NCBI GenBank assembly: GCA_963662985.1
Contig: OY760066.1
Span: 167,801-231,800, forward strand
DNA length: 64,000 bases
Direction of reading: 5' to 3'
From: Anaerolineales bacterium
GTDB lineage: Bacteria; Chloroflexota; Anaerolineae; Anaerolineales; UBA11579
Shown here: piece after piece, positions 8,579 to 40,779 of the stretch
Layout: each line of letters begins with the position of its first letter
How positions within the stretch are numbered: the stretch's first letter is position 1
Made by a program: the position numbers and the translations under genes
Notes under the pieces: generated by a model
Database searches by the model: none
Told to the model about the DNA's origin: nothing
Seen by the model: the letters and a program-made list of their open reading frames with translations, nothing else

Positions 8579-11500
8579 TTAATACCTGCCTTCAAGTAAA
8601 TCTAAAAGACCCTGATAATTATATTCATCAATGTAAGATATAAATATTTCTTTTAATTCTGAAAGTTTATTATCTAACATATCAATTAATTCTCGGATTT
8701 TTTCTATATCTCCTTGTTGAATGTTCTCTATTATGTTTTGTTTCCAAAGTTTAGGTAATTTATCAATTAGTTCTTTGTTAATCTTGTGTTGTTTTTCAAT
8801 TCTTTTTAGATTTGGATTGTTATTAAAATATTCGTATTCGATATTTAAATTCTCTTTTAAGATCAAAAATATTTTTTCGATATCGTATGGTTTTAACAAA
8901 ATACCGTTTGTCTTTGATTCTTTAATTTTAATTGAAAGTTCTTCATCAAAGATAGTAGCAGAGATTAAATAAATAGGGATTTCATTGTTAAATTGATCTT
9001 CTCTAATATTTTTGATAAATTTAAACGCATTGTCAAACGGTGCTTTTATTCCTAAAAACACAAAGTCTGGTTTTTGAAGGTTAAATTCTTGGATGGCTTT
9101 TCTCATATCTGTTGTTGAAAGTACTTTGAATCCAACGTTCTTTAATTGTGTCGAGAGTAAGGTTAGGTTGGACTTGTCTTCATCAATAATTAACACCTGA
9201 GGGGATATTTGGTTTTGTTTAATGGACTTTACATAACCGAAGCCATTATCTTGTATGTGGGGTTCTATCTCTGAAATTTTGTTAATGAATGAGAATTCGA
9301 ATTCTGAACCTTGATTTGGTTCGCTCATAATTAAAATCACATCACCATGCATTATTTGAGCATATTGCCGGCTAATCGCCATACCTAACCCAGACCCTGA
9401 TTTTTTGTTGATGTCATTCTCTCCTTGTTCAAAATATTCAAAGACCTTATCACGATCATTTTGATTGATACCAATCCCTGTGTCTTTTACAATAATTGAA
9501 ACAAAGATATCGTTTATGTTGATTTTTTCATATTTGATAATAATTTCTATATTGCCTTCTGATGTAAATTTTATTGCATTTGACATCAGATTTGCGATAA
9601 CTTGTTTGATCTTTTGCTTATCACCGTAAAGAAATCTTGGAAAATCATCCTGGATGTTTATATTAAAATTAATTCCTTTTTTGCTGATTCGATAGGAAAA
9701 CATGTTTTTTATCTCGGATAACATCATACAGAAATCATAGATATTTTCTTCAATTTTCATTATTCCTGATTCTATTTTTGATAAATCTAATATGTCGTTG
9801 ATCAGGGATAATAACATTTCTCCACTTCGATTTATAATCTCTAGTGATTCCTTATGGTGTTGATTTAGATTATCGTCTCTTTTTAACATTTGAGCGTAAC
9901 CTAAAATTGCATTCATGGGGGTGCGAATCTCATGTGACATATTTGCTAGAAACTGTGTTTTTGCTTGAGTAGCTGAAACAGCTATATCTCTTGCTTTTGC
10001 TAATTCATATTCAATTTTCTTTAGTTCACTGATATCAATTAACCAACCTTTTATACTTTCTTTCCCTTTATAAATTGTTTTATAGAAATATGAGAGTGTA
10101 TGAATCGTTTCTCCATTTTGCCCAACAATTTCAAGGTCAAAATTTGTGAATTGGTCTTTTGTTTTTAATTCATTCTTTAGGTATTTTCGGTCTTCGATGT
10201 TTTTATATAATTTTTCAGCGTTATCTCCAATTGAGAGACCTGTCATATGTTGAAAAGTATTATTGAAGAATGCCAATTTATTATCTGTTGAAATCGCAAA
10301 TGCAATGGGGCTTGAGTTAAGAATTTCTTCTAACTTCTGTTGTTCTTCATTTAATTCTATCTCTAGTTTCTTGGTTTTTGTTATATCCCAAGATAAACCT
10401 AAGATCCTTTCTGGTTTATTGTATGTACCAAGTATAGGATGTCCAAAAACATGAATATATTTTTTCTGTCCTGTTGCTGTTTGAATTTCAAAATCATTAT
10501 TAAAATCTTTATAAGTTTTAATACAATTACTTATTTGATCTAATAATCTGTCTTTATCTTTAAAAAGAATTTTATCTTTTAAGTCGTGAGGTATTGATAT
10601 CTTTTCGTTTGTTGGAATATCAAAGATTTGATACATTATTTCATCCCAACTCATTTTTTTATCTTTTATATCCCATTCCCAAAGCCCAATTTCTGCTGAA
10701 TATTTTGCTAGCTCAAATCTATTTTGGAGTTGTGATAAATCATTGCCACTTTTTATTATTTTTTCTGTAAGTGATATATTCAATTTTTTAATTCTGTCAT
10801 TAGAAATAATATTTTCTATTTTTTCACTGACAATGATTGAAATGTTATTTAATAATTCTTTTTCTTCTTCTAAAAAGAAGGAGGGATTATTAAATATTTT
10901 CTGATTTACATAACTAATTTCGATAAATCCTTCAGGAATATTATCTATAATCAACTCACTATTAATCTTGCAATTTGAGTTTGTATAATTTGAAGATCTA
11001 TAGTCTTGGCCTTTATATCTGATCTTTACAGCTGTGTTTGATGGATATTGCCAACCACTGGGAATAATCTCAATCATTTTAGTAATAATATTTTTTATAT
11101 CATTTTCTTTTTGAATTAGTTTTGAAATATCTCGAAGACATTGTAGTTCATTTATGCGTTTATTCATTTTGATGAGCAAATCATCTTGATGTGCTTCAAT
11201 ACTTTTTCTTAGTCCAATGTTTTGAAAAAATCCAATATAATATTCTGTATTTTGTAGCTCATCAAATTGTGCGATTAATAAAACTTCTACGGGGATACGG
11301 CTTTCATTTTTATGAATATATTCTTTTTCATATTTTATAGAAATTTTATCTGGTGATAATAAGCTGAGCATATCAAGTTCATCATCTAAATATTCGCTCG
11401 GAGTTAGGTCTATCCAGCTCATATTTTCAATTTCTGATTTTGTGTATCCTACTAATTCACAATATTTTTTGTTAGGATTAAATAACCTTTGATCATGGGT

Positions 11501-32713: not shown

Positions 32714-32745
32714 GTCTTTCTAAGAATAGAATAACAAATTGAGTA

Positions 32746-32782
32746 AAAAGTAGGGATTATAACTTCCCTACTTTTTTATTTA
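32746..32782 (+). terminator. Rho-independent terminator after flotillin gene
   Basis: GTAGGGAttataactTCCCTAC followed by TTTTTTATTT. Confidence 0.75.
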
Positions 32783-32834
32783 ATTCAATATTGCTCAAAA
32801 TGTAAACACTTATTCTTTTTTAATAAAACGGTGT

Positions 32835-32860
32835 TCAAATGGATGTTTGTTGTTTATAAT
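32835..32860 (+). promoter_or_regulatory. Candidate promoter of etf/glt-like operon (TTCAAA ... TATAAT)
   Basis: Perfect TATAAT at 32855-32860. Weak -35 with sub-optimal 14-nt spacing. Confidence 0.3.
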
Positions 32861-32872
32861 ATTCTAATTGTA

Positions 32873-32898
32873 TGACGATTGGAGGATTTCAATCGTCA
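32873..32898 (+). promoter_or_regulatory. Perfect 9-bp inverted repeat TGACGATTG-N8-CAATCGTCA in leader of etfB (candidate operator / leader hairpin)
   Basis: Read directly. The dyad lies between the TATAAT and the etfB RBS/ATG (32931). Confidence 0.5.
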
Positions 32899-32930
32899 AG
32901 AAATCATTCTTATATTATTGGAGACATTTT

Positions 32931-33764
32931 ATGCGAATCATTGTACCGATCAAACAGGTACCCGAGACGACTAACGTCAAAATGGATCCGGAAACTGGCA
33001 CGATGCTACGTTCTGGACTAGCTAGTATTATTAATCCCCTTGACCTAAATTCTTTAGAAGCAGCGCTTCAACTTAAAGAACAGATGCAGCAGCGCCAGCA
33101 GAACCAGCAAAATAAGGATGATGACCATGAAGTCATTGCAATAAGTATGGGCCCGAAGAATGCCCACTATGCTTTGAAAGAGGCGATTGCAATGGGTTGC
33201 GATCGCGCTTTTTTATTAAGCGACCGGAAATTTTCTGGGGCTGATACGTGGGCAACTGCGTATGTTTTGACACAAGCGATCAAGAAAATCGGTGATTTTG
33301 ATTTGATTGTGTGCGGTGAGCGCGCGTCTGATGGGGACACTGGACAAGTGGGTCCGGGGATTGCGGCCTTTTTGGGGTTGCCATTGGCGACCTATGTGAG
33401 CCGGGCGCAAATGATCGCTGAGGATGTGGTGCAAATTGAGCGATTGGTGGAAGACGGAACGGAAATCTTGCGTACCCCTACGCCAGCAGTGCTGACTGTG
33501 TTGAAAGAGGCTGGCTATCCGCGGTTCCCCACTTTGAAGCAAAAATTAGCGGCTGAAGAAGTGGAGATACCCACTTGGGGACCGGATGAACTGGAAGCGG
33601 ATGCGGAGAAGATCGGGCTGAAAGGCTCCCCCACCCGAGTAGTGAAGATTGACAAACCACAAGTTGGACGAAAGGCAGAGCTTGTTGCCGGCAGAGATAA
33701 AGCCGACCAAGACAATGCGGTGCAACGTGTGGTTGATTTTCTTAAAGAACGAAATTTGCTATAA
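32931..33764 (+). CDS. etfB: Electron transfer flavoprotein beta subunit (EtfB/FixA)
   Basis: MRIIVPIKQVPETTNVKMDPETGTMLRSG matches the canonical EtfB N-terminus. ...LIVCGERASDGDTGQVGP... is also EtfB-like. Start set at ATG 32931 with GGAG 9 nt upstream. The track ORF starts at 32868. Confidence 0.85.
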   Translation: MRIIVPIKQVPETTNVKMDPETGTMLRSGLASIINPLDLNSLEAALQLKEQMQQRQQNQQNKDDDHEVIAISMGPKNAHYALKEAIAMGCDRAFLLSDRKFSGADTWATAYVLTQAIKKIGDFDLIVCGERASDGDTGQVGPGIAAFLGLPLATYVSRAQMIAEDVVQIERLVEDGTEILRTPTPAVLTVLKEAGYPRFPTLKQKLAAEEVEIPTWGPDELEADAEKIGLKGSPTRVVKIDKPQVGRKAELVAGRDKADQDNAVQRVVDFLKERNLL

Positions 33765-33773
33765 GGATGAGGT

Positions 33774-34811
33774 GTGAGCATGAGTATAGCTATTGATAAA
33801 AGTGAATGGAAAGATGTGTGGACATTGGCAGAGTTTAACCACGGTAAGATGCATGGCGTCTCATTTGAATTGTTGGCATGGGGGCGTGACTTGGCAGATG
33901 ACCGTGGGTGCAAGCTGTGTTCTGTGGTTTTGACAGATGAGATTGGTGATGCTGAATTGAATCAATTATTTGCACATGGTGCCGATATGATTTATGTGGT
34001 GACACACCCCGCTTTGAAGAACTTCATCACGGAGATGAATGCAAAAGTGGTACGTAAGTTGGTGGAAGATTTGAAGCCAGAAGTGTTTTTGGCTGCTGCA
34101 ACAACAACAGGACGAACGGTGATGCCTTATGTGGCGATTCAAACACGGGCCGGTTTGACAGCAGATTGCACAGGTTTGGCGATTGACCCAGAAACGGGCG
34201 AATTACATCAAACCCGTCCGGCAATTGGGGGAAACATTATGGCGACAATCAAGACCCCTGATGCACGACCGCAAATGGCAACGGTGCGACCAAAGTCTAA
34301 GAAGCCGTTGACTGCAGATGAGAGCCGCTCTGGGGATGTGGTGCGGGTGGAAATGCCCGAAGAATTCTTTGTGACCAAAATGACTATGGACACTTTTATT
34401 GCAAATGATTTAAATGAAATACCCGTGGAAGAAGCAGACATTGTAGTTTCTGGTGGTGCTGGAGTTGGCAATTTAGGCAACTTTGCGCTGCTGGAAGACT
34501 TGGCAGATGTGTTGGGGGGTACGGTGGGAGTGAGCCGAGTGCCAGTGGACCAAGGATGGCGACCGTATATTAAGCAAGTGGGGATGTCAGGCAAGACAAT
34601 TGCACCGAAGTTATATATTGCGTGTGGAATCTCTGGGACGGTGCATCATATTGTGGGGATGCAAACTTCGGAAACGATTGTGGCTATTAACACTGATCCT
34701 GAAGCAAAAATCTTCCAAGTGGCTGACTTAGGCGTGGTGGGGGACTTGACCAAACTACTACCGAAACTAACTGCAAAAATCAAAGAAGAAAAAGAAAGGA
34801 TGGCCTTGTGA
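33774..34811 (+). CDS. etfA: Electron transfer flavoprotein alpha subunit (EtfA/FixB)
   Basis: C-terminal FAD-binding region (PKLYIACGISGTVHHIVGMQTSETIVAINTDPEAKIFQVADLGVVGDL) is diagnostic of EtfA. Confidence 0.85.
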   Translation: MSMSIAIDKSEWKDVWTLAEFNHGKMHGVSFELLAWGRDLADDRGCKLCSVVLTDEIGDAELNQLFAHGADMIYVVTHPALKNFITEMNAKVVRKLVEDLKPEVFLAAATTTGRTVMPYVAIQTRAGLTADCTGLAIDPETGELHQTRPAIGGNIMATIKTPDARPQMATVRPKSKKPLTADESRSGDVVRVEMPEEFFVTKMTMDTFIANDLNEIPVEEADIVVSGGAGVGNLGNFALLEDLADVLGGTVGVSRVPVDQGWRPYIKQVGMSGKTIAPKLYIACGISGTVHHIVGMQTSETIVAINTDPEAKIFQVADLGVVGDLTKLLPKLTAKIKEEKERMAL

Positions 34812-37378
34812 TGGCAACTCCTATCAAAAAAACAAGTCGTTATCATATTGAAACTGCTCCTGCACCGGCACCTTTTGATTATCCGGTGGATTTTCGTAAA
34901 GATGTGAAGGATGATTATGTAAAATATGGGCATCAAGGATTGCCCTATCATCGCACTGGGGGAGACCCACATTGGACGCCACAAGTGATTTCTCAAATTT
35001 GGTATCAAGCAGAAACAGGGAAGATTCCGATTTCGGGGGCTGGCTATGGTGGTGGATTTGCAGAACATGGCTTTGATGGTATTTGGCTGGATATGTCTGA
35101 AATTGTGCGCCCTACTCGAGATGGAATCCATGGTCGGGAATATATTTCTACGATCATTGACTTGGGAGTGCGGTTGCCTCAATTGCATTTTAGCGAAGAA
35201 GGATTGTTGGTGGAAGAGACACCAAAGATGCTCTCAATCCCAGTGCCAATTGTGTTTGACCCAATCCCAATGAAAATTCCGGGACGAGCATTACATCTAT
35301 CTGTGGCGAAAGCGGCACATGCTTTGAAAGTGTTTGCATTGATTAAATTTGAAGATCTTGCAGAGGATTTATTGCCCTATCAAGATGCAATTATCCCCTT
35401 ATTGGAAGATTTGGATAAATTGGACAGTGACTGGGTGAAACAAGCCCCGATGGTGGCAGTGGCCGCTGATGGCAAGACTGCAATGGCACGCTATGCTGAG
35501 GTGACAAAGGCTTTGCCTGAAGCAACGGTGATGATGCGATTGCCAATGACACCGAGCACTAAAGAGACAGTGCATGCTTTGATCGATGCAGGATGTGCTT
35601 CTTTTCATTTTTATGCGGATGACCAAGCCGAAGAATTTGAGGGGACACGGTCTTTGCCAAAGGCTTTGATCGAATTGCACAATGAATTGATTGACCGACG
35701 CACAAGAGATTTGGTTTCGATTGTGGTGAGCGGTGGGATTGCAAATGCAGAACATTTGCCTAAGTCGATCATCTGCGGAGCGGATGCAGTGGCGATTGAT
35801 TTTGTGACGATTTCCGCTTTGGGATGCGCTTTGTGGGCAGATATTCGACATGGTTGCAAAGTGGAAAAGGGTGAGATTGACCCTGAGTGGGGGGCACAAC
35901 GATTGATCAATTTAGTGAATGCATGGCGTGACCAATTGCTGGAAGCGATGGGAGCAATGGGACTGCGAGAAGTGCGCCGAATGCGGGGTGAAATGGGACG
36001 AGCGATGTTTTATGATGAAGAAGAAGCACGCTTCCGAAAATTGTTCACTCGACCAGAAGGGGTGGATGTGCCAATGTTGCCGGCATTGAAGGCGAATGAT
36101 GCAGAAATTGAAGGTGATTTGCGTTGGACAACCCAATTATTATTGGCTACGGCAGAACAAGCACGCAGTGGTAAGCCGGGAACGTCTAAGTTGGAATATC
36201 GACATGGGCGCTCAAATGGCGGCTTTGACCGAATGCGATTCTTATTTGAATTAGAAGAAGATATGAGCAAGTTTGCGTGGGATGAAGATGCTGTGGACGA
36301 AGTGGACCTGAGCTTGGCCTTGAACCATCGTGAAGACGGACGGCCTGAATTGACGATTCCGCAACCTTGGTATGGCGGGGGGATGTCGTTTGGGTCCGTG
36401 AGTGTGAACACGATGCTGTCACGTGTGCGTGCAGCAGAAGCTTTTGATTCGTTTATTTCCACTGGCGAAGGTGGGTATCCGGAAGATTTGATTCCCTATT
36501 CTAAACATATGATTACTCAAGTGGCAACAGGGCTGTTTGGGGTTCGGGAAGAGACAATCCAACGCGCACCAATTGTGGAGTTTAAGTATGCTCAAGGTGC
36601 CAAACCCGGCTTGGGAGGGCACTTGTTGGGTAGCAAGTCTACGGAAGCAGTGGCAAAAATGCGCCAAGCGGTGCAAGGGATTAGTTTGTTCTCTCCGTTC
36701 CCATTCCATAGTGTGTATTCGGTGGAAGACCATAAAAAGCATGTAGACTGGATTAAGACGGTGAATCCGGAAGCGTTGATTTCGGTGAAAGTGTCTACGC
36801 CAACAGATGTGGATATGGTGGCAGTGGGCTCCTATTATGCAGGGGCGAATATTTTGCATGTGGATGGTGCGTACGGAGGTACGGGGGCAGCACCGGAAAT
36901 TGCGAAGAAGAATATTGCGTTGCCGATTGAATATGCGATTAGCCGCATCCATCATTTTTTGATTAATGAAGGGATTCGCGACGAATTAGTGGTGATTGCT
37001 TCAGGTGGTGTGCGCACGGCATTTGACATTGCAAAGGCGATTGCGTTGGGGGCTGATGGAGTGGTGATTGGCACAGCAGATTTGGTGGCGATTGGATGTG
37101 TTCGGTTGGCATGTTGTGAAAAGGATGATGGCTGTCCGTTTGGGATTACTACGACGGATCCAAATTTAGCGAAGCTGGTGCAAGTGGAAGAATCGACAGA
37201 ACGAATTAAGAATATGTATGCTTCATGGAAAATCCAATTAGCGACTATTTTGAAGAAATTGGGGATGCGCTCGATTGGTGAATTGCGCGGACGGACGGAC
37301 CTGTTGGTGTATTTGGATAAAGAAGGTGATTCCTATCAAGGGACAAAAATAAATCATAAGGAGAACATCCATGCATAA
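34811..37378 (+). CDS. Glutamate-synthase-family FMN/TIM-barrel protein with two tandem GltS-domain-2-like modules (GlxC / archaeal GltB-like); second module carries Cys cluster
   Basis: The C-terminal module has the Glu_synthase FMN-domain signature (…ASGGVRTAFDIAKAIALGADGVVIGTADLVAIGCVRLACCEKDDGCPFGITT…) and a G-rich FMN-phosphate loop. The N-terminal module repeats the same pattern in degenerate form (…IVVSGGIANAEHLPKSIICGADAVAIDFVTISALGCALWADIRHGCK…). ATG 34811 overlaps the etfA stop. Confidence 0.8.
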   Translation: MATPIKKTSRYHIETAPAPAPFDYPVDFRKDVKDDYVKYGHQGLPYHRTGGDPHWTPQVISQIWYQAETGKIPISGAGYGGGFAEHGFDGIWLDMSEIVRPTRDGIHGREYISTIIDLGVRLPQLHFSEEGLLVEETPKMLSIPVPIVFDPIPMKIPGRALHLSVAKAAHALKVFALIKFEDLAEDLLPYQDAIIPLLEDLDKLDSDWVKQAPMVAVAADGKTAMARYAEVTKALPEATVMMRLPMTPSTKETVHALIDAGCASFHFYADDQAEEFEGTRSLPKALIELHNELIDRRTRDLVSIVVSGGIANAEHLPKSIICGADAVAIDFVTISALGCALWADIRHGCKVEKGEIDPEWGAQRLINLVNAWRDQLLEAMGAMGLREVRRMRGEMGRAMFYDEEEARFRKLFTRPEGVDVPMLPALKANDAEIEGDLRWTTQLLLATAEQARSGKPGTSKLEYRHGRSNGGFDRMRFLFELEEDMSKFAWDEDAVDEVDLSLALNHREDGRPELTIPQPWYGGGMSFGSVSVNTMLSRVRAAEAFDSFISTGEGGYPEDLIPYSKHMITQVATGLFGVREETIQRAPIVEFKYAQGAKPGLGGHLLGSKSTEAVAKMRQAVQGISLFSPFPFHSVYSVEDHKKHVDWIKTVNPEALISVKVSTPTDVDMVAVGSYYAGANILHVDGAYGGTGAAPEIAKKNIALPIEYAISRIHHFLINEGIRDELVVIASGGVRTAFDIAKAIALGADGVVIGTADLVAIGCVRLACCEKDDGCPFGITTTDPNLAKLVQVEESTERIKNMYASWKIQLATILKKLGMRSIGELRGRTDLLVYLDKEGDSYQGTKINHKENIHA

Positions 37379-38774
37379 ATTGACGACCTCCCGAATTGAT
37401 CGGATTTTGGATTCGCGCCGAAAGCTCTATGACGATGCTGTTTTGCACCCGAATAATTCTCGTGAAGAAGCCGCAGAAGGCGGTTGTGGTGTAGTGGGGG
37501 TGACGAGTTCCTTCCCAGTGGCGGGACGACATTTCTTCCCTGCGGCAGAGCAAATGCATAACCGTGGGAATGGGAAAGGTGGCGGAATTGCGGCGGCTGG
37601 TTTGAACCCGGCACAAATGGGTGTTACGGCGGATGTTTTGCGCGATGCAACGATGTTGCAAGTGGCTTATTTGGATGCGGATTGTGTGGCTGAAGTGGAA
37701 GCGGAATGTATCTTCCCTGTCTATGATGTGTTGACATCCTATCGAGTGGACACGGTGGAGGATTACCGAGAGATTGAAGGATTAGAAATTCAACCACCGG
37801 ACGTGGTGCGCTATTTTGTGCGGGCAAAAAAAGACTCATTGGCTGATTTTGCCAAGGATAATGCGCTAGAAGACTTGACCGCGCGCGAATTGGAAGATGA
37901 ATTTGTATATCGCAATAGCTTTTTCCTAAACACAAAATTCTATGCAAGTTTGGGTGAACAACGGGCTTTTGTGATGTCTCATGGGCGCGATTTGTTAATC
38001 TTTAAAATTGTGGGGTATGCAGAAGAAGCGGCGAAATATTATAAGCTTGATGAGATGGAAGCGCATGTGTGGATTGCCCATCAACGCTATCCGACAAAAG
38101 GGCGAGTGTGGCACCCCGGGGGAGCGCACCCCTTCATTGGTATGAACGAGGCTTTGGTGCATAATGGGGATTTTGCGAATTATCATGCAGTGTCGGATTA
38201 TTTGAAACAACGGAATATCAAACCTTTATTCTTGACCGATACGGAGATTAGCGTGTTGTTGTTTGATCTGTTGGATCGTACCTATCATTATCCGTTGGAA
38301 GCCATTGTGGAAGCATTGGCACCAACCACAGAACGGGATTTTTTGAAATTGCCAGCAGAAAAACAAACGCTCTATCGCCAAATTCAAAAAACACATATCC
38401 ATGCTTCTCCTGATGGACCATGGTTCTTCATCATTGCACGCAGTCAACCTGAAAAGGACTTGTGTCAATTGCTGGGGATTACGGATACCTCGATGCTGCG
38501 CCCACAAGTGTTTGCGTTGGTCGACTCTGAGATGGAAGGCAAACGCTATCAAATGGGACTGTTGGGCTCTGAAAAACAAGCGATTGATGCAACCTTGAAG
38601 AGCTTGAGCAAAGAATATACGGCGATTCCGACAGTGGCAGACCGTTATTGGAATGCACGAGGGGGGTCTTATAATGATGGCGGTTCCTTCACTTTTTCGG
38701 TGCGCAAGAAAAGCCCCGATGCCCCCTATGGGAGCATGCGCGAGTTGTGTGCCGCAACAAGTTTGGAGAGGTGA
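37371..38774 (+). CDS. Class-II (Ntn) glutamine amidotransferase domain protein, glutamate-synthase type (GlxB / archaeal GltA-like)
   Basis: CGVVGV candidate nucleophile Cys. HQRYPTKG and HNGDFANY resemble the GltS GATase RxSTNT / NGEINT motifs. Overlaps the upstream gene by 8 nt with an AAGGAGA RBS. Confidence 0.7.
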   Translation: MHKLTTSRIDRILDSRRKLYDDAVLHPNNSREEAAEGGCGVVGVTSSFPVAGRHFFPAAEQMHNRGNGKGGGIAAAGLNPAQMGVTADVLRDATMLQVAYLDADCVAEVEAECIFPVYDVLTSYRVDTVEDYREIEGLEIQPPDVVRYFVRAKKDSLADFAKDNALEDLTARELEDEFVYRNSFFLNTKFYASLGEQRAFVMSHGRDLLIFKIVGYAEEAAKYYKLDEMEAHVWIAHQRYPTKGRVWHPGGAHPFIGMNEALVHNGDFANYHAVSDYLKQRNIKPLFLTDTEISVLLFDLLDRTYHYPLEAIVEALAPTTERDFLKLPAEKQTLYRQIQKTHIHASPDGPWFFIIARSQPEKDLCQLLGITDTSMLRPQVFALVDSEMEGKRYQMGLLGSEKQAIDATLKSLSKEYTAIPTVADRYWNARGGSYNDGGSFTFSVRKKSPDAPYGSMRELCAATSLER

Positions 38775-40006
38775 TTGAAGCACCAAAAGGACAAACACAT
38801 TGGAACCCAACTGGCGAAGAACAATTGGTGGATGATGGGTTTGCTGAGACTATATTGGAAAAAGTGCTGGCGGGAGGAGATGATTCCTTTGAAGCCATGA
38901 CAGCACCTGTACAAAAAGATTTGGGCAAGTGGATATCCAACTATAGTTACGAAGCAATTGCTGGGGCTGTGGACGCTTGGGTGAAGGCTGGGGCGGATGT
39001 GGCAAAGACTAAGGCAATTTTAGCATTATTAACCCGTTTGCGGGATAGTATGTTTGACCCGCAAGAAAAACGACGGGCTTCGATCTTGGATATTGTGGAT
39101 GCAGGGATAAATGCGCTGTTAGACCGCGTACCTTCTTTTGATGCAAAGGCAAAACTCTCTCGGATTACTTGGGAGACACGTGATGCGCTACAAGCTCCGA
39201 CGCATGTGGATGCTATTTTGGTGGTGGATGTGAGTGGCTTCCCAGCGGAAGGGGATGAAGGACCGGGAATCTTCCAAGCAAATGCGTTCCGAATGGGATG
39301 GCACCATTTGGTGTCTTATCGCTGGGCGGGACAACGTTTCTTAGGATGTAATTTGAGCAAGGTCACAGATGCGCTGCGCTTTGATGTTTATGGCTCCCCG
39401 GGGGATTATTTTGCAAGCGGGATGGATGGCGACGAGGTGGCAATGATGATCCACACGAATGCACAAGACCAATTGGCGCAGATTTTCAACCACGGGACAT
39501 TGGTGATCTATGGTGATGTGGGGCAAACGTTTATGTATGGCGCAAAAGGCGGAAAAGCTTTTGTGCGCGGAAACGTGGCCGGACGTCCGTTGATTAATGC
39601 AGTGGGTGCACCGCGAGTGGTGATCAATGGAACCTGTTTGGATTATTTGGCAGAATCGTTTATGGCAGGCGATCCACTGAATGGGGGTGGTTTTGTGATT
39701 TTGAATGGGATTGAATTTGATGACCATGGACAAATGGTTGCTTTGGATGAACCTTATCGCGGGAATAATTTATTCTCTTTGGCATCTGGGGGAGCACTCT
39801 ATGTGCGCGATCCCTATGCGAAGTTGGATGAAAATCAACTGAACGGCGGTATGTTTGCAGATTTGAGTGAAGCGGATTGGAATTTGATCCTGCCCTATTT
39901 AGAAGAAAATGAAGCCTATTTTGGCATTGATGTGGATGCTTTGCTGACTGTGGATGGCAAGGTGATGGCTCCAGAAAAGGTTTATCGTAAAATTTGCCCG
40001 AAGTAA
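38771..40006 (+). CDS. GXGXG-motif beta-helix protein (glutamate synthase C-terminal domain-like; GlxD / archaeal GltC-like)
   Basis: VIYGDVGQTFMYGAKGGKAFVRGNVAGRPLINAVGAPRVVINGTCLDYLAESFMAGD matches the GXGXG repeat domain of GltS. Start proposed at GTG 38771 (GTGA overlap with the upstream stop, GGAGAGG RBS). The track start is 38747. Confidence 0.75.
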   Translation: MIEAPKGQTHWNPTGEEQLVDDGFAETILEKVLAGGDDSFEAMTAPVQKDLGKWISNYSYEAIAGAVDAWVKAGADVAKTKAILALLTRLRDSMFDPQEKRRASILDIVDAGINALLDRVPSFDAKAKLSRITWETRDALQAPTHVDAILVVDVSGFPAEGDEGPGIFQANAFRMGWHHLVSYRWAGQRFLGCNLSKVTDALRFDVYGSPGDYFASGMDGDEVAMMIHTNAQDQLAQIFNHGTLVIYGDVGQTFMYGAKGGKAFVRGNVAGRPLINAVGAPRVVINGTCLDYLAESFMAGDPLNGGGFVILNGIEFDDHGQMVALDEPYRGNNLFSLASGGALYVRDPYAKLDENQLNGGMFADLSEADWNLILPYLEENEAYFGIDVDALLTVDGKVMAPEKVYRKICPK

Positions 40007-40030
40007 GTTTGGATTAAATTTTTGTTTGAT

Positions 40031-40064
40031 GAAGACCCTCTTGCAATTGAGAGAGGGTTTTTTG
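40031..40064 (+). terminator. Rho-independent terminator ending the etf/glt-like operon
   Basis: CCCTCTtgcaattgagAGAGGG followed by TTTTTTG. Confidence 0.75.
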
Positions 40065-40419
40065 TGCATATTTTTTGTCTAATATTTTTTGACAGAATTG
40101 GACAGGTGTCAAGCTATTTTTGGACACTTTTTGGACACTTTTTTGACAGGTGTCCAATTTTTTCCGGGCTGAATTTTGGCATATAGAGAGGCATGATGTA
40201 GGAGAGATGACATATGGAGGGTCTTGAGGGCTAAATTTTGACAGTTTAGCCAAATATTTTTTTATGTGTCAAATTTTGCCAGTAGCTTTAATGTTCTATT
40301 TATTATACCATATTACTTGGTTCTTTTTACCTCATTTTGCATTTAATTTAGGCGGGTAAGAATAAATAAAATTCTCCATCTGAACTATAATTGTAATAGA
40401 GTAACTGAAAGGACAAACA

Positions 40420-40779
40420 ATGACCTATCGTGAGTTATCGCCAGAAGAAAAACGTGTGATCTTGAACAAGGGCACAGAAATACCTTATACAGGAGAATAT
40501 ACAGATTTTAAAGGTGCAGGGACTTATCATTGTAAACAATGTGATGCAGCGCTTTATCGCTCTGTGGATAAGTTTGATTCGGGCTGCGGTTGGCCTAGCT
40601 TTGACGATGAGATTCCGGGTGCTGTGGAACGTAAGTTGGATGCAGATGGGCGCCGAACAGAGATTTTGTGCGCGAATTGTGGCGGACATTTGGGACATGT
40701 GTTCGAAGGAGAGCGAATGACGCCGAAGAATACGCGCCATTGTGTGAACTCAATCTCGATGGTGTTCAAAGGTGAGTGA
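40420..40779 (+). CDS. msrB: Peptide-methionine (R)-S-oxide reductase MsrB (zinc-binding type)
   Basis: CKQC ... CANC zinc-ligand pairs. Catalytic [13 protein letters not shown] motif. Confidence 0.9.

Follow-up and report, generated by a model that had tools for sequence, protein, structure and literature searches.

Glutamate synthase and electron-transfer flavoprotein genes form one operon

The window analyzed here is a 64,000-nt stretch of DNA from an Anaerolineales bacterium (GCA_963662985.1, contig OY760066.1, positions 167,801 to 231,800 of the forward strand). Within it, a + strand operon places the genes for both subunits of an electron-transfer flavoprotein (ETF), etfB and etfA, directly ahead of the genes for a divided glutamate synthase (GltS), which we label gltS1 and gltS2. 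The operon is real and conserved, and it combines a GltS with an ETF input module, that is, a bifurcating-type ETF with what would be a new partner; the functional steps that we assign to it below are proposals. A first-pass annotation, made from the DNA letters by a model, had called five + strand open reading frames (ORFs) here, and all five are present. Its domain calls (ETF, ETF_alpha, Glu_synthase, GATase, and GXGXG) were borne out by Pfam, with GATase_6 scoring 26.6 bits against a 27-bit cutoff, 0.4 bit under. The features of the operon are as follows.

32745-32776, + strand: predicted intrinsic terminator of the upstream Band_7/flotillin gene (fold -18.1 kcal/mol, z -5.7, then a U-run)
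32777-32930, + strand: AT-rich spacer with the presumed promoter and the etfB ribosome-binding site GGAG (direct sequence reading)
32931-33764, + strand: etfB, ETF small subunit, 277 aa (Pfam ETF, 4.8e-39)
33774-34811, + strand: etfA, ETF large subunit, 345 aa (Pfam ETF, 8.7e-41; ETF_alpha, 5.5e-32)
34808-37378, + strand: gltS1, 856 aa (Pfam Glu_synthase, 4.6e-98)
37371-38774, + strand: gltS2, N-terminal part, 467 aa (GATase_6, 6.9e-6)
38745-38748, + strand: site of a 1-bp deletion (GAGTT-GTG) that splits gltS2 in the window only
38747-40006, + strand: gltS2, C-terminal part, 419 aa (Pfam GXGXG, 4.6e-11)
About 40031-40062, + strand: predicted intrinsic terminator with a stem of 12 bp and then UUUUUU (-18.8 kcal/mol, z -3.9; inverted repeat)

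The genes had been described as joined by overlapping or near-overlapping starts and stops. This is true of the first three junctions: etfB and etfA are 9 nt apart, etfA overlaps gltS1 by 4 bp (GTGA/ATGA type), and gltS1 overlaps the GATase gene by 8 bp. The fourth junction is not a native boundary. There is a second possible etfA start, an ATG at 33780. The hairpins at 32745-32776 and 40031-40062 are the predicted 5' and 3' limits of the operon unit. Of the one promoter region and one terminator that had been claimed for the genes, the terminator part holds in that hairpins bracket the unit, but a promoter scan of the + strand of the 154-nt spacer upstream of etfB found no sigma-70 consensus promoter. 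The sole -35/-10-like pair 5' of etfB, TTCAAA-15 nt-TATAAT at 32834-32860, has a nonconsensus spacer and is absent from the scan list, and we rejected it. Rfam gave no family over threshold anywhere in the window and two tRNAs only across seven ETF-linked loci.

An internal terminator dividing the unit had been raised as a possibility, and one candidate was found, a hairpin within etfB at 33183-33215 on the + strand (10-bp G+C-rich stem and then UUUUUU, -20.6 kcal/mol, z -5.5). It is kept in L004, a 98% relative, and missing from the orthologues in L005, L006, and L011. Because these three lack it, we rejected it as a conserved terminator or attenuator and regard it as probably a by-product of the coding sequence AIAMGCDRAFLL.

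A single base deletion divides gltS2 in the window

The first-pass annotation had taken the last two ORFs as separate genes and the enzyme as a three-gene set. This split is the product of the 1-bp deletion. One G is missing in the window at about 38746, where it reads GAGTT-GTG versus GAGTTGGTG in L001 (OY781052.2), the Anaerolineales metagenome-assembled genome (MAG) that is the closest relative (98% identity in the 856-aa protein and 96% in the GATase-GXGXG DNA). The deletion is the sole gap in 2637 nt aligned to L001 by blastn. In L001, the order is etfB, etfA, the 856-aa gene, and then a single 878-aa gene for GATase plus GXGXG, and the gltS2 fusion is likewise intact, at 878 aa, in the sister strains P0241, P0242 (97%), and P0243 (87%). 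GATase and GXGXG share one unbroken frame in 66 of the 68 species-level loci having both domains, and the best 120 database matches are all fusions of 823 to 940 aa. Because gltS2 is unbroken in L001, in the sister strains, and in 66 of 68 loci, the native system is one of four genes: etfB, etfA, gltS1, and gltS2.

In the window itself, the N-terminal gltS2 frame ends 9 codons past the frameshift, and the deletion sits in the poorly conserved linker between the domains. A GTG at the deletion site (38747) has GGGAG 12 nt upstream. The split is either an assembly error or a recent, perhaps tolerated, division of the protein at its interdomain linker.

Predicted domains of GltS1 and GltS2

GltS1 matches Pfam Glu_synthase with 329 bits (cutoff 20.4) and has three regions: an invariant N-terminal segment (residues ~35-115), a barrel resembling the GltS central domain (~130-450), and a flavin mononucleotide (FMN)/[3Fe-4S] synthase domain (~500-840). 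In a PDB search, residues 525-840 matched the synthase domain of the Azospirillum brasilense, Bacillus subtilis, and Synechocystis GltS enzymes (1e-51 to 2e-47). C764, C770, and C776, in a Cx5Cx5C pattern, are invariant in 64 homologues and align to the Cys-rich loop of A. brasilense GltS; these residues are the predicted [3Fe-4S] ligands of the synthase domain. Furthermore, Q596, K599, and R619 align to A. brasilense Q934, K937, and R957, which we take to be 2-oxoglutarate site residues of GltS. C323, C340, and C350 (window about 35774-35857) form a conserved Cys trio in the other, central-domain-like half of GltS1, at a position that is, by internal duplication, the equivalent of the 3Fe-4S loop in the synthase half.

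The central domain of canonical GltS binds no cofactor. The N-terminal half of GltS1 matches the last third of the Glu_synthase profile only (1.4e-6), and an AlphaFold2 (AF2) model of GltS1 (predicted template modeling score [pTM], 0.82) superposes on GltS alpha over ~870 columns with a TM score of 0.58-0.60, spanning the central and synthase domains. By this model, the N-terminal half is the likely counterpart of the GltS central domain, which is itself regarded as a degenerate copy of the FMN barrel that arose by duplication (PMC8097209). GltS1 had been called a double FMN barrel; Pfam and the superposition instead make its first half a central-domain homologue, and a second FMN site there, unsupported by Pfam or fold data, was rejected. 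No part of GltS1 is more strongly conserved than the segment at ~35-115 (window about 34910-35150), where dozens of residues are invariant (WLDMSEIVRPTRDGIHGRE and others). Pfam gives no match to this segment, the model confidence there (pLDDT) is <50, and its folding probably requires contact with GltS2 or another partner.

The N-terminal part of GltS2 is a predicted N-terminal nucleophile (Ntn) class-II glutaminase domain. Its NCBIfam matches are GlmS and PurF (1e-9 to 1e-10). Across 56 homologues, conservation is at least 95% for the motif AEGGC39GV (AEGGCGV) and for the R-Y-P-T-x-G, HNG, and TDTE motifs, which align to the R, N-G, and D of GlmS. The candidate catalytic Cys39 lies behind a 38-aa leader in the window (17-38 aa in the family), which would have to be removed. 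The middle of GltS2 is a helical linker region of ~190 aa without a Pfam match, ahead of the beta-helix, and the model (pTM, 0.86) accordingly places helices at 491-585 and then the beta-helix. In the 419-aa C-terminal part, the first 208 aa have no Pfam match, GXGXG covers residues 208-366, and there are FwdC-like matches. A fold search with the GltS2 model returned GltS alpha first (7mfm_G best) and then PurF and GlmS. NCBIfam gave the same domain picture as Pfam for the five products, with no equivalog at its cutoff. Jointly, GltS1 and GltS2 are thus predicted to hold all four domains of GltS alpha in a permuted order.

The ETF belongs by sequence to the bifurcating group

We compared the window ETF with a set of proven bifurcating ETFs (5ol2, 6fah, 7qh2, 7koe, and 4kpu) and with the canonical human, Paracoccus, and Methylophilus ETFs. 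In the PDB search with EtfB, the five proven bifurcating ETFs came out on top at 166-194 bits, and the canonical ETFs scored 46-72 bits. With EtfA, bifurcating ETFs likewise took the top five places (those of T. maritima, C. difficile, and A. fermentans plus CarE and LctC) at 221-295 bits, and canonical ETFs reached at most 144 bits. A check of EtfB for the signature of the second flavin adenine dinucleotide (FAD), as the first-pass annotation had advised, found the "zipper" DGDTGQ at residues 134-139. The zipper D-G-[DE]-T-[AG]-[QH] is the bifurcating ETF signature at the pyrophosphate of the bifurcating FAD, with frequencies in 216 sequences of 100% for D, 95% for G, 95% for D/E, 100% for T, 97% for A/G, and 100% for Q/H, whereas canonical ETFs have DDDSNQ at this position (PMC8958531). 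These results show that, by sequence, the window ETF belongs to the two-FAD, NADH-using bifurcating group (group 2).

The window EtfA is without the N-terminal ferredoxin domain. Its nearest relatives outside the system, at 58-60% identity, are Anaerolineae EtfAs that adjoin LctD-type FAD oxidases, and the bifurcating lactate dehydrogenase likewise has EtfA beside an LctD-type FAD oxidase.

A two-subunit GltS family in nitrogen-assimilation contexts

GltS1 homologues are numerous, with 3521 matches among 8000 candidates scored, the best 120 at 58-98% identity. An exact-sequence look-up of the window's own 856-aa protein gave no record. In a one-genome-per-species collection, 183 stretches encode a GltS1 relative, and neighborhood counts come from the 80 loci kept. 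The carriers are mostly Anaerolineae and other Chloroflexota, and further carriers are Armatimonadota, Acidobacteriota, Gemmatimonadales, and archaeal-labeled MAGs. The database names of the family are generic ("alpha-hydroxy-acid oxidizing protein," "glutamate synthase-related," and "glutamate synthase domain-containing protein 1/2/3"). Neighbors that recur in the 80 loci are a GAF-HisKA_2 kinase (19), glutamine-dependent NAD synthetase, NadE (16), a receiver-ANTAR regulator (13), and GlnA (4); Ada/MGMT, EamA, carbamoyltransferase, and tRNA synthetase genes also recur, and none of these is a redox partner. No GltD-like or other reductase recurs among the neighbors of the 80 loci. This context suits an enzyme of nitrogen assimilation that has no gene for its default donor beside it. 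Because most members have no dedicated reductase gene beside them, ferredoxin is, most simply, the likely donor of the ETF-less majority. The family is probably the glutamine:2-oxoglutarate amidotransferase (GOGAT) of Anaerolineae.

An improbable alternative is that the enzyme is not a GOGAT. It would then be a GltS-like reductive amidotransferase, or else a redox enzyme, whose substrate is a different 2-oxo acid, imino acid, or N-alkyl amino acid, and it would take electrons from the ETF or donate them to it. Near the substrate site, the family has an invariant H605 for the canonical Gln (Gln943) and an invariant L602 for the canonical Glu (Glu940), next to the substrate Lys, which counts against glutamate synthesis, as do the lack of an NCBIfam equivalog at the cutoff and the generic names. 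A homologous three-subunit enzyme, MgsABC, has another function, that of N-methylglutamate synthase (PMC3160333), and a 2-hydroxyacid dehydrogenase gene follows the operon in two of the ETF-linked loci, L084 and L090. However, the Lys, Arg, and Gln that presumably bind 2-oxoglutarate are retained together with the entire glutaminase machinery, and the GlnA and NadE neighbors in other lineages speak for nitrogen assimilation. Moreover, mgd/sox-type (sarcosine-oxidase-like) genes are absent from the 30 largest neighbor clusters of the 80 loci, and N-methylglutamate synthase needs no external reductant.

A side observation concerns regulation. In L002, L003, and 13-19 other loci, all ETF-less, genes for a GAF-GAF-HisKA_2 histidine kinase and a receiver-ANTAR regulator lie directly 5' of gltS1. 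The pair recalls PdtaS/PdtaR and suggests antitermination control of the GltS pair.

ETF genes adjoin gltS in two gene orders

Tblastn searches with the window EtfA and EtfB found the linkage in L004, L005, L006, L008, and L011. Altogether, etfBA lies immediately 5' of gltS1 in the window, L001/L004, L005, L006, L008 (Brevefilum sp.), L011, and the metagenomic contigs L084, L090, and L091, the last three with the same four-gene order as the window relatives. The 4-bp etfA/gltS1 overlap is kept in the window, L001, L084, L090, and L091, down to 62% protein identity. In a neighbor-joining tree, the GltS1 sequences with an upstream ETF form one clade of 9 loci besides the window. A second order, gltS1-gltS2-etfB-etfA, is found in L030 (Thermoplasmatota-labeled) and L076 (Micrarchaeota-labeled); both labels are those of MAGs whose binning is unverified. 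The EtfA proteins of L030 and L076 have 392-406 aa and two N-terminal CxxCxxCxxxCP motifs, as in the 2x[4Fe-4S] ferredoxin domain of CarE and LctC. This type of EtfA matches CarE over its full length (422 bits to 6fah_A) and is 44% identical to the window EtfA. DGDTGQ or DGDTAQ was present in all seven other linked EtfBs checked (L004, L005, L006, L011, L084, L030, and L076); the check left out L008, whose etfB was missed by ORF calling, L090, and L091.

The sequences suggest that two ETF lineages were joined to the GltS pair separately, twice. Since one enzyme has ETFs of two distinct lineages beside it, the linkage appears functional rather than a matter of chance, and we consider it likely that the ETF is the redox partner of the GltS pair. 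The first-pass annotation had named EtfAB as the apparent redox partner and asked for a survey of the gene order across genomes. The coupled unit and the linkage in two gene orders agree with this partnership, and the survey found the arrangement kept in one clade and two further MAGs; it is not general in the family. A standard acyl-CoA dehydrogenase partner had been raised as the simpler explanation, and neither an acyl-CoA dehydrogenase nor any other of the usual ETF partners was found near the operon in the window or L001.

The rarity of the linkage weighs against the partnership and against the function built on it below. An ETF adjoins gltS in 7 of the 80 species-level loci only (6 of 45 when at least 2 kb is available on both sides). 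Most family loci lack an ETF within 10 kb, and about 87% have none nearby. Additionally, linked GltS1 differs from unlinked GltS1 by two fixed substitutions (E59Q and E620Q) and no distinctive insertion. It is the upstream-ETF clade in which both are fixed; the downstream-ETF clade shares neither. Because these are the sole differences, no docking adaptation is visible. Such near identity, like the ETF-less majority, is what adjacency without a functional link would produce, with the ETF serving a dehydrogenase encoded elsewhere and the GltS pair using ferredoxin like the ETF-less members. We nevertheless regard this as extremely unlikely. The 4-bp etfA/gltS1 overlap persists down to the identity given above, the linkage holds across a whole clade, and it recurs in the other gene order with a different ETF lineage.

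Two further genes stand beside the linked operons. A D-isomer-specific 2-hydroxyacid dehydrogenase gene lies directly 3' of the operon in L084 (7677-8645), L090 (12206-13171), and L008 (15500-16477; assigned by reading the sequence only), and its candidate substrate might be 2-oxoglutarate/2-hydroxyglutarate or something unrelated. In L030, etfA is followed at 8922-10097 by a gene for a 391-aa Cys-rich protein that by eye is like HdrD/GlcF-type Fe-S (CCG-domain) oxidoreductases. It is absent from L076 and could be a further electron-transfer partner.

A proposed ETF-driven glutamate synthase

We propose, with a probability of about 0.5, that etfBA-gltS1-gltS2 encodes a two-polypeptide GOGAT in which a bifurcating-type EtfAB replaces GltD or free ferredoxin as the electron input. 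EtfAB would dock on GltS1/GltS2, and NADH would reduce the beta-FAD of EtfB. The alpha-FAD, carried by the mobile EtfA domain, would relay electrons one by one to the [3Fe-4S] cluster and FMN of GltS1. Ammonia from the GltS2 glutaminase would be channeled and combine with 2-oxoglutarate to give 2-iminoglutarate, which the GltS1 FMN would reduce to glutamate, and the low-potential electron remaining on the beta-FAD would go to ferredoxin (Fd) or flavodoxin. The net equation would be 2 NADH + Gln + 2-oxoglutarate + 2 Fd(ox) -> 2 NAD+ + 2 Glu + 2 Fd(red). Reduction of 2-oxoglutarate plus the glutamine amide by NADH is, by our estimate, which counts in glutamine hydrolysis, about as exergonic as crotonyl-CoA reduction and could pay for the reduction of ferredoxin. 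Electron transfer between an ETF flavin and an Fe-S center has precedents in ETF:quinone oxidoreductase and trimethylamine dehydrogenase.

The first-pass annotation had spoken of an ETF-driven, possibly bifurcating system. The bifurcating type is borne out by the similarity ranking and the zipper, whereas complex formation, the substrate, the donor, bifurcation itself, and above all the co-reduction of ferredoxin are steps that we infer. We hold true bifurcation by EtfAB-GltS as a tentative proposal, slightly short of even odds. More tentative again is the view that EtfAB-GltS is an unrecognized class of flavin-based bifurcating enzyme, assembled at least twice from two bifurcating ETF lineages.

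Besides the rarity of the linkage and the H605/L602 exchanges, several findings speak against the proposed enzyme. The Pfam glutaminase match is marginally under threshold, and gltS2 is frameshifted in the window copy. To our knowledge, the structurally known partners of bifurcating ETFs all accept electrons at FAD, and GltS1 is predicted to offer FMN and a 3Fe-4S cluster, not FAD. A bifurcating-like sequence also does not guarantee that the complex bifurcates. Both EtfA and EtfB match the NCBIfam models for the ETF of Clostridium acryloyl-CoA reductase (the best EtfA match and the second-best EtfB match), and this enzyme, which has a bifurcating-like ETF, is not known to us to reduce ferredoxin.

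These matches favor a simpler role for EtfAB as a plain NADH:GltS oxidoreductase that would deliver both electrons to GltS1 and reduce no ferredoxin, a GltD substitute without energy conservation. The synteny evidence serves this role equally well, and it would explain an operon without a ferredoxin gene and an EtfA without a ferredoxin domain. We nonetheless think it unlikely, given that the bifurcating signature and similarity ranking are kept in both recruited ETF lineages, that the second lineage has the CarE/LctC-type 2x[4Fe-4S] domain, and that the nearest ETF relatives pair with LctD-type enzymes.

The same relatives bear on a reversed, catabolic direction. As in Ldh-EtfAB, the complex could confurcate, oxidizing glutamate to 2-oxoglutarate in amino acid fermentation while reduced ferredoxin helps to drive the reduction of NAD+. 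Anaerolineae are fermenters, and the glutamate/2-oxoglutarate potential is presumably too high for NAD+ alone, like that of lactate/pyruvate. The LctD-type systems to which the nearest ETF relatives belong are physiologically confurcating, according to 10.1101/2022.02.02.478877. We consider this direction very unlikely, since glutamate oxidation would leave without a role a glutaminase domain that is fully conserved, catalytic Cys included, glutamine hydrolysis renders the overall reaction irreversible, and the family neighbors are anabolic nitrogen genes.

Comparison of the proposed system with known enzymes

Like GltB/GltD (A. brasilense 1EA0/2VDC and B. subtilis 7MFM), the proposed GOGAT has all four alpha domains and the 3Fe-4S Cys triad. 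It also has Lys, Arg, and Gln residues that align to the presumed 2-oxoglutarate site. Unlike GltB, however, alpha is here split in two and permuted, with central plus FMN domains on one chain and then GATase fused via the ~190-aa helical linker to GXGXG on the other. There is no GltD-like gene nearby, and bifurcating-type EtfAB stands in its place. H605 and L602 near the substrate site and the extra invariant N-terminal segment (~130 aa) are further differences. Judged by the definition of GltS as a single GATase-central-FMN-GXGXG chain with GltD or ferredoxin as the donor, the locus departs in chain number and order and has an ETF, not GltD, beside it. Ferredoxin-dependent GltS (Synechocystis 1LLW/1OFD) has the same domain set and cofactor residues, and most members of the present family similarly have no adjacent reductase gene. 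That enzyme is a single 1500-aa chain, whereas there are two genes here and, in the window's clade, a translationally coupled ETF.

On the ETF side, the likeness is to the bifurcating EtfAB complexes (Bcd-EtfAB 5OL2, CarCDE 6FAH, LctBCD 7QH2, EtfABCX 7KOE, and Acidaminococcus fermentans EtfAB 4KPU). It extends to the search scores, the zipper, and an adjacent and translationally coupled partner gene, and the L030/L076 lineage has the CarE/LctC ferredoxin domain. The partner is different: an FMN/3Fe-4S amidotransferase instead of an acyl-CoA dehydrogenase, LctD-type FAD oxidase, or ETF:quinone oxidoreductase. The acceptor reaction would be biosynthetic here, whereas it is catabolic there. The partners of ETF-based bifurcation known to us (butyryl-CoA dehydrogenase, caffeyl-CoA reductase, lactate dehydrogenase, and ETF:quinone oxidoreductase) are all catabolic, and the only established GltS donors that we know of are NAD(P)H, via GltD, and ferredoxin. 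A survey covering twelve types of bifurcating enzyme does not name GltS as a partner (PMC6085437).

Split sets of the glxBCD type had been cited as being of unknown function, a statement that is outdated. The mgsABC genes of Methyloversatilis encode N-methylglutamate synthase. Their top match, the glxBCD operon of SAR11, has been proposed by homology to encode the same enzyme (PMC3160333). MgsABC resembles the window system in dividing GATase-like, GXGXG, and FMN domains among separate polypeptides and in placing the GATase gene next to that for GXGXG (PMC3160333). However, it has three subunits, no central-domain half, a methylamine context (gmaS and mgdABCD), and no external reductant, in contrast to the two subunits, conserved catalytic Cys, main neighbor clusters free of mgd/sox-type genes, and attached ETF found here. 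The window locus does not fit the N-methylglutamate synthase family.

That the system is uncharacterized, as the first-pass annotation held, is true in that a full-text literature search, with most subscription papers outside its reach and an earlier mention therefore possible, found no report of an ETF-glutamate synthase pairing. The idea of a GltS with a noncanonical donor, however, is not new. Glutamate synthases that have been characterized draw on NADH, NADPH, or ferredoxin, and an F420-dependent GltS of methanogens (FGltS-I/II) has been proposed from gene context and awaits biochemical proof (PMC3448663). Like the present system, FGltS-I/II joins a GltS core to a noncanonical electron-input subunit inferred from gene context; its donor module is an FrhB/FpoF-type F420H2 dehydrogenase, whereas here it is an ETF (PMC3448663).

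Implications of the proposed ETF-linked GOGAT

If an ETF is wired to GOGAT, nitrogen assimilation would gain a new class of donor for one of its central enzymes. If the complex bifurcates, glutamate synthesis would be the first bulk biosynthetic reaction to act as the exergonic branch, and the main nitrogen-assimilation flux of these anaerobes would regenerate low-potential reductant rather than dissipate energy. A further result is the definition of a large two-subunit GltS family with generic annotations, found mostly in Anaerolineae, bacteria that abound in anaerobic digesters and sediments. The system is small, consisting of four proteins predicted to be soluble, and the question is directly testable by heterologous expression.

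Surroundings of the operon in the window

The neighbors of the operon are NUDIX, Band_7, MsrB, and TPR genes. From 32931 to 40779, covering the etf-gltS operon and msrB, G+C is 47-49% and G+C at third codon positions (GC3) is 0.43-0.49, compared with 32-41% G+C in the flanking genes and a window mean of 37%. The raised G+C could point to horizontal origin or to codon bias in genes expressed at high levels.

Between the operon terminator and msrB, at 40083-40281, lies an array of TTGGACA / TGTCAA half-sites. It includes two palindromes of 15-16 nt (TTGGACAGGTGTCAA and TTGACAGGTGTCCAA), a tandem pair of TTTTTGGACAC, and more copies, and it looks like a putative operator set for some regulator.

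Farther downstream, a giant ORF on the - strand (42668-63994) runs past the window end and encodes >7108 aa. In two 2000-aa stretches scanned, Pfam found one RTX calcium-binding repeat only. A sister genome has an 8440-aa gene at its place.

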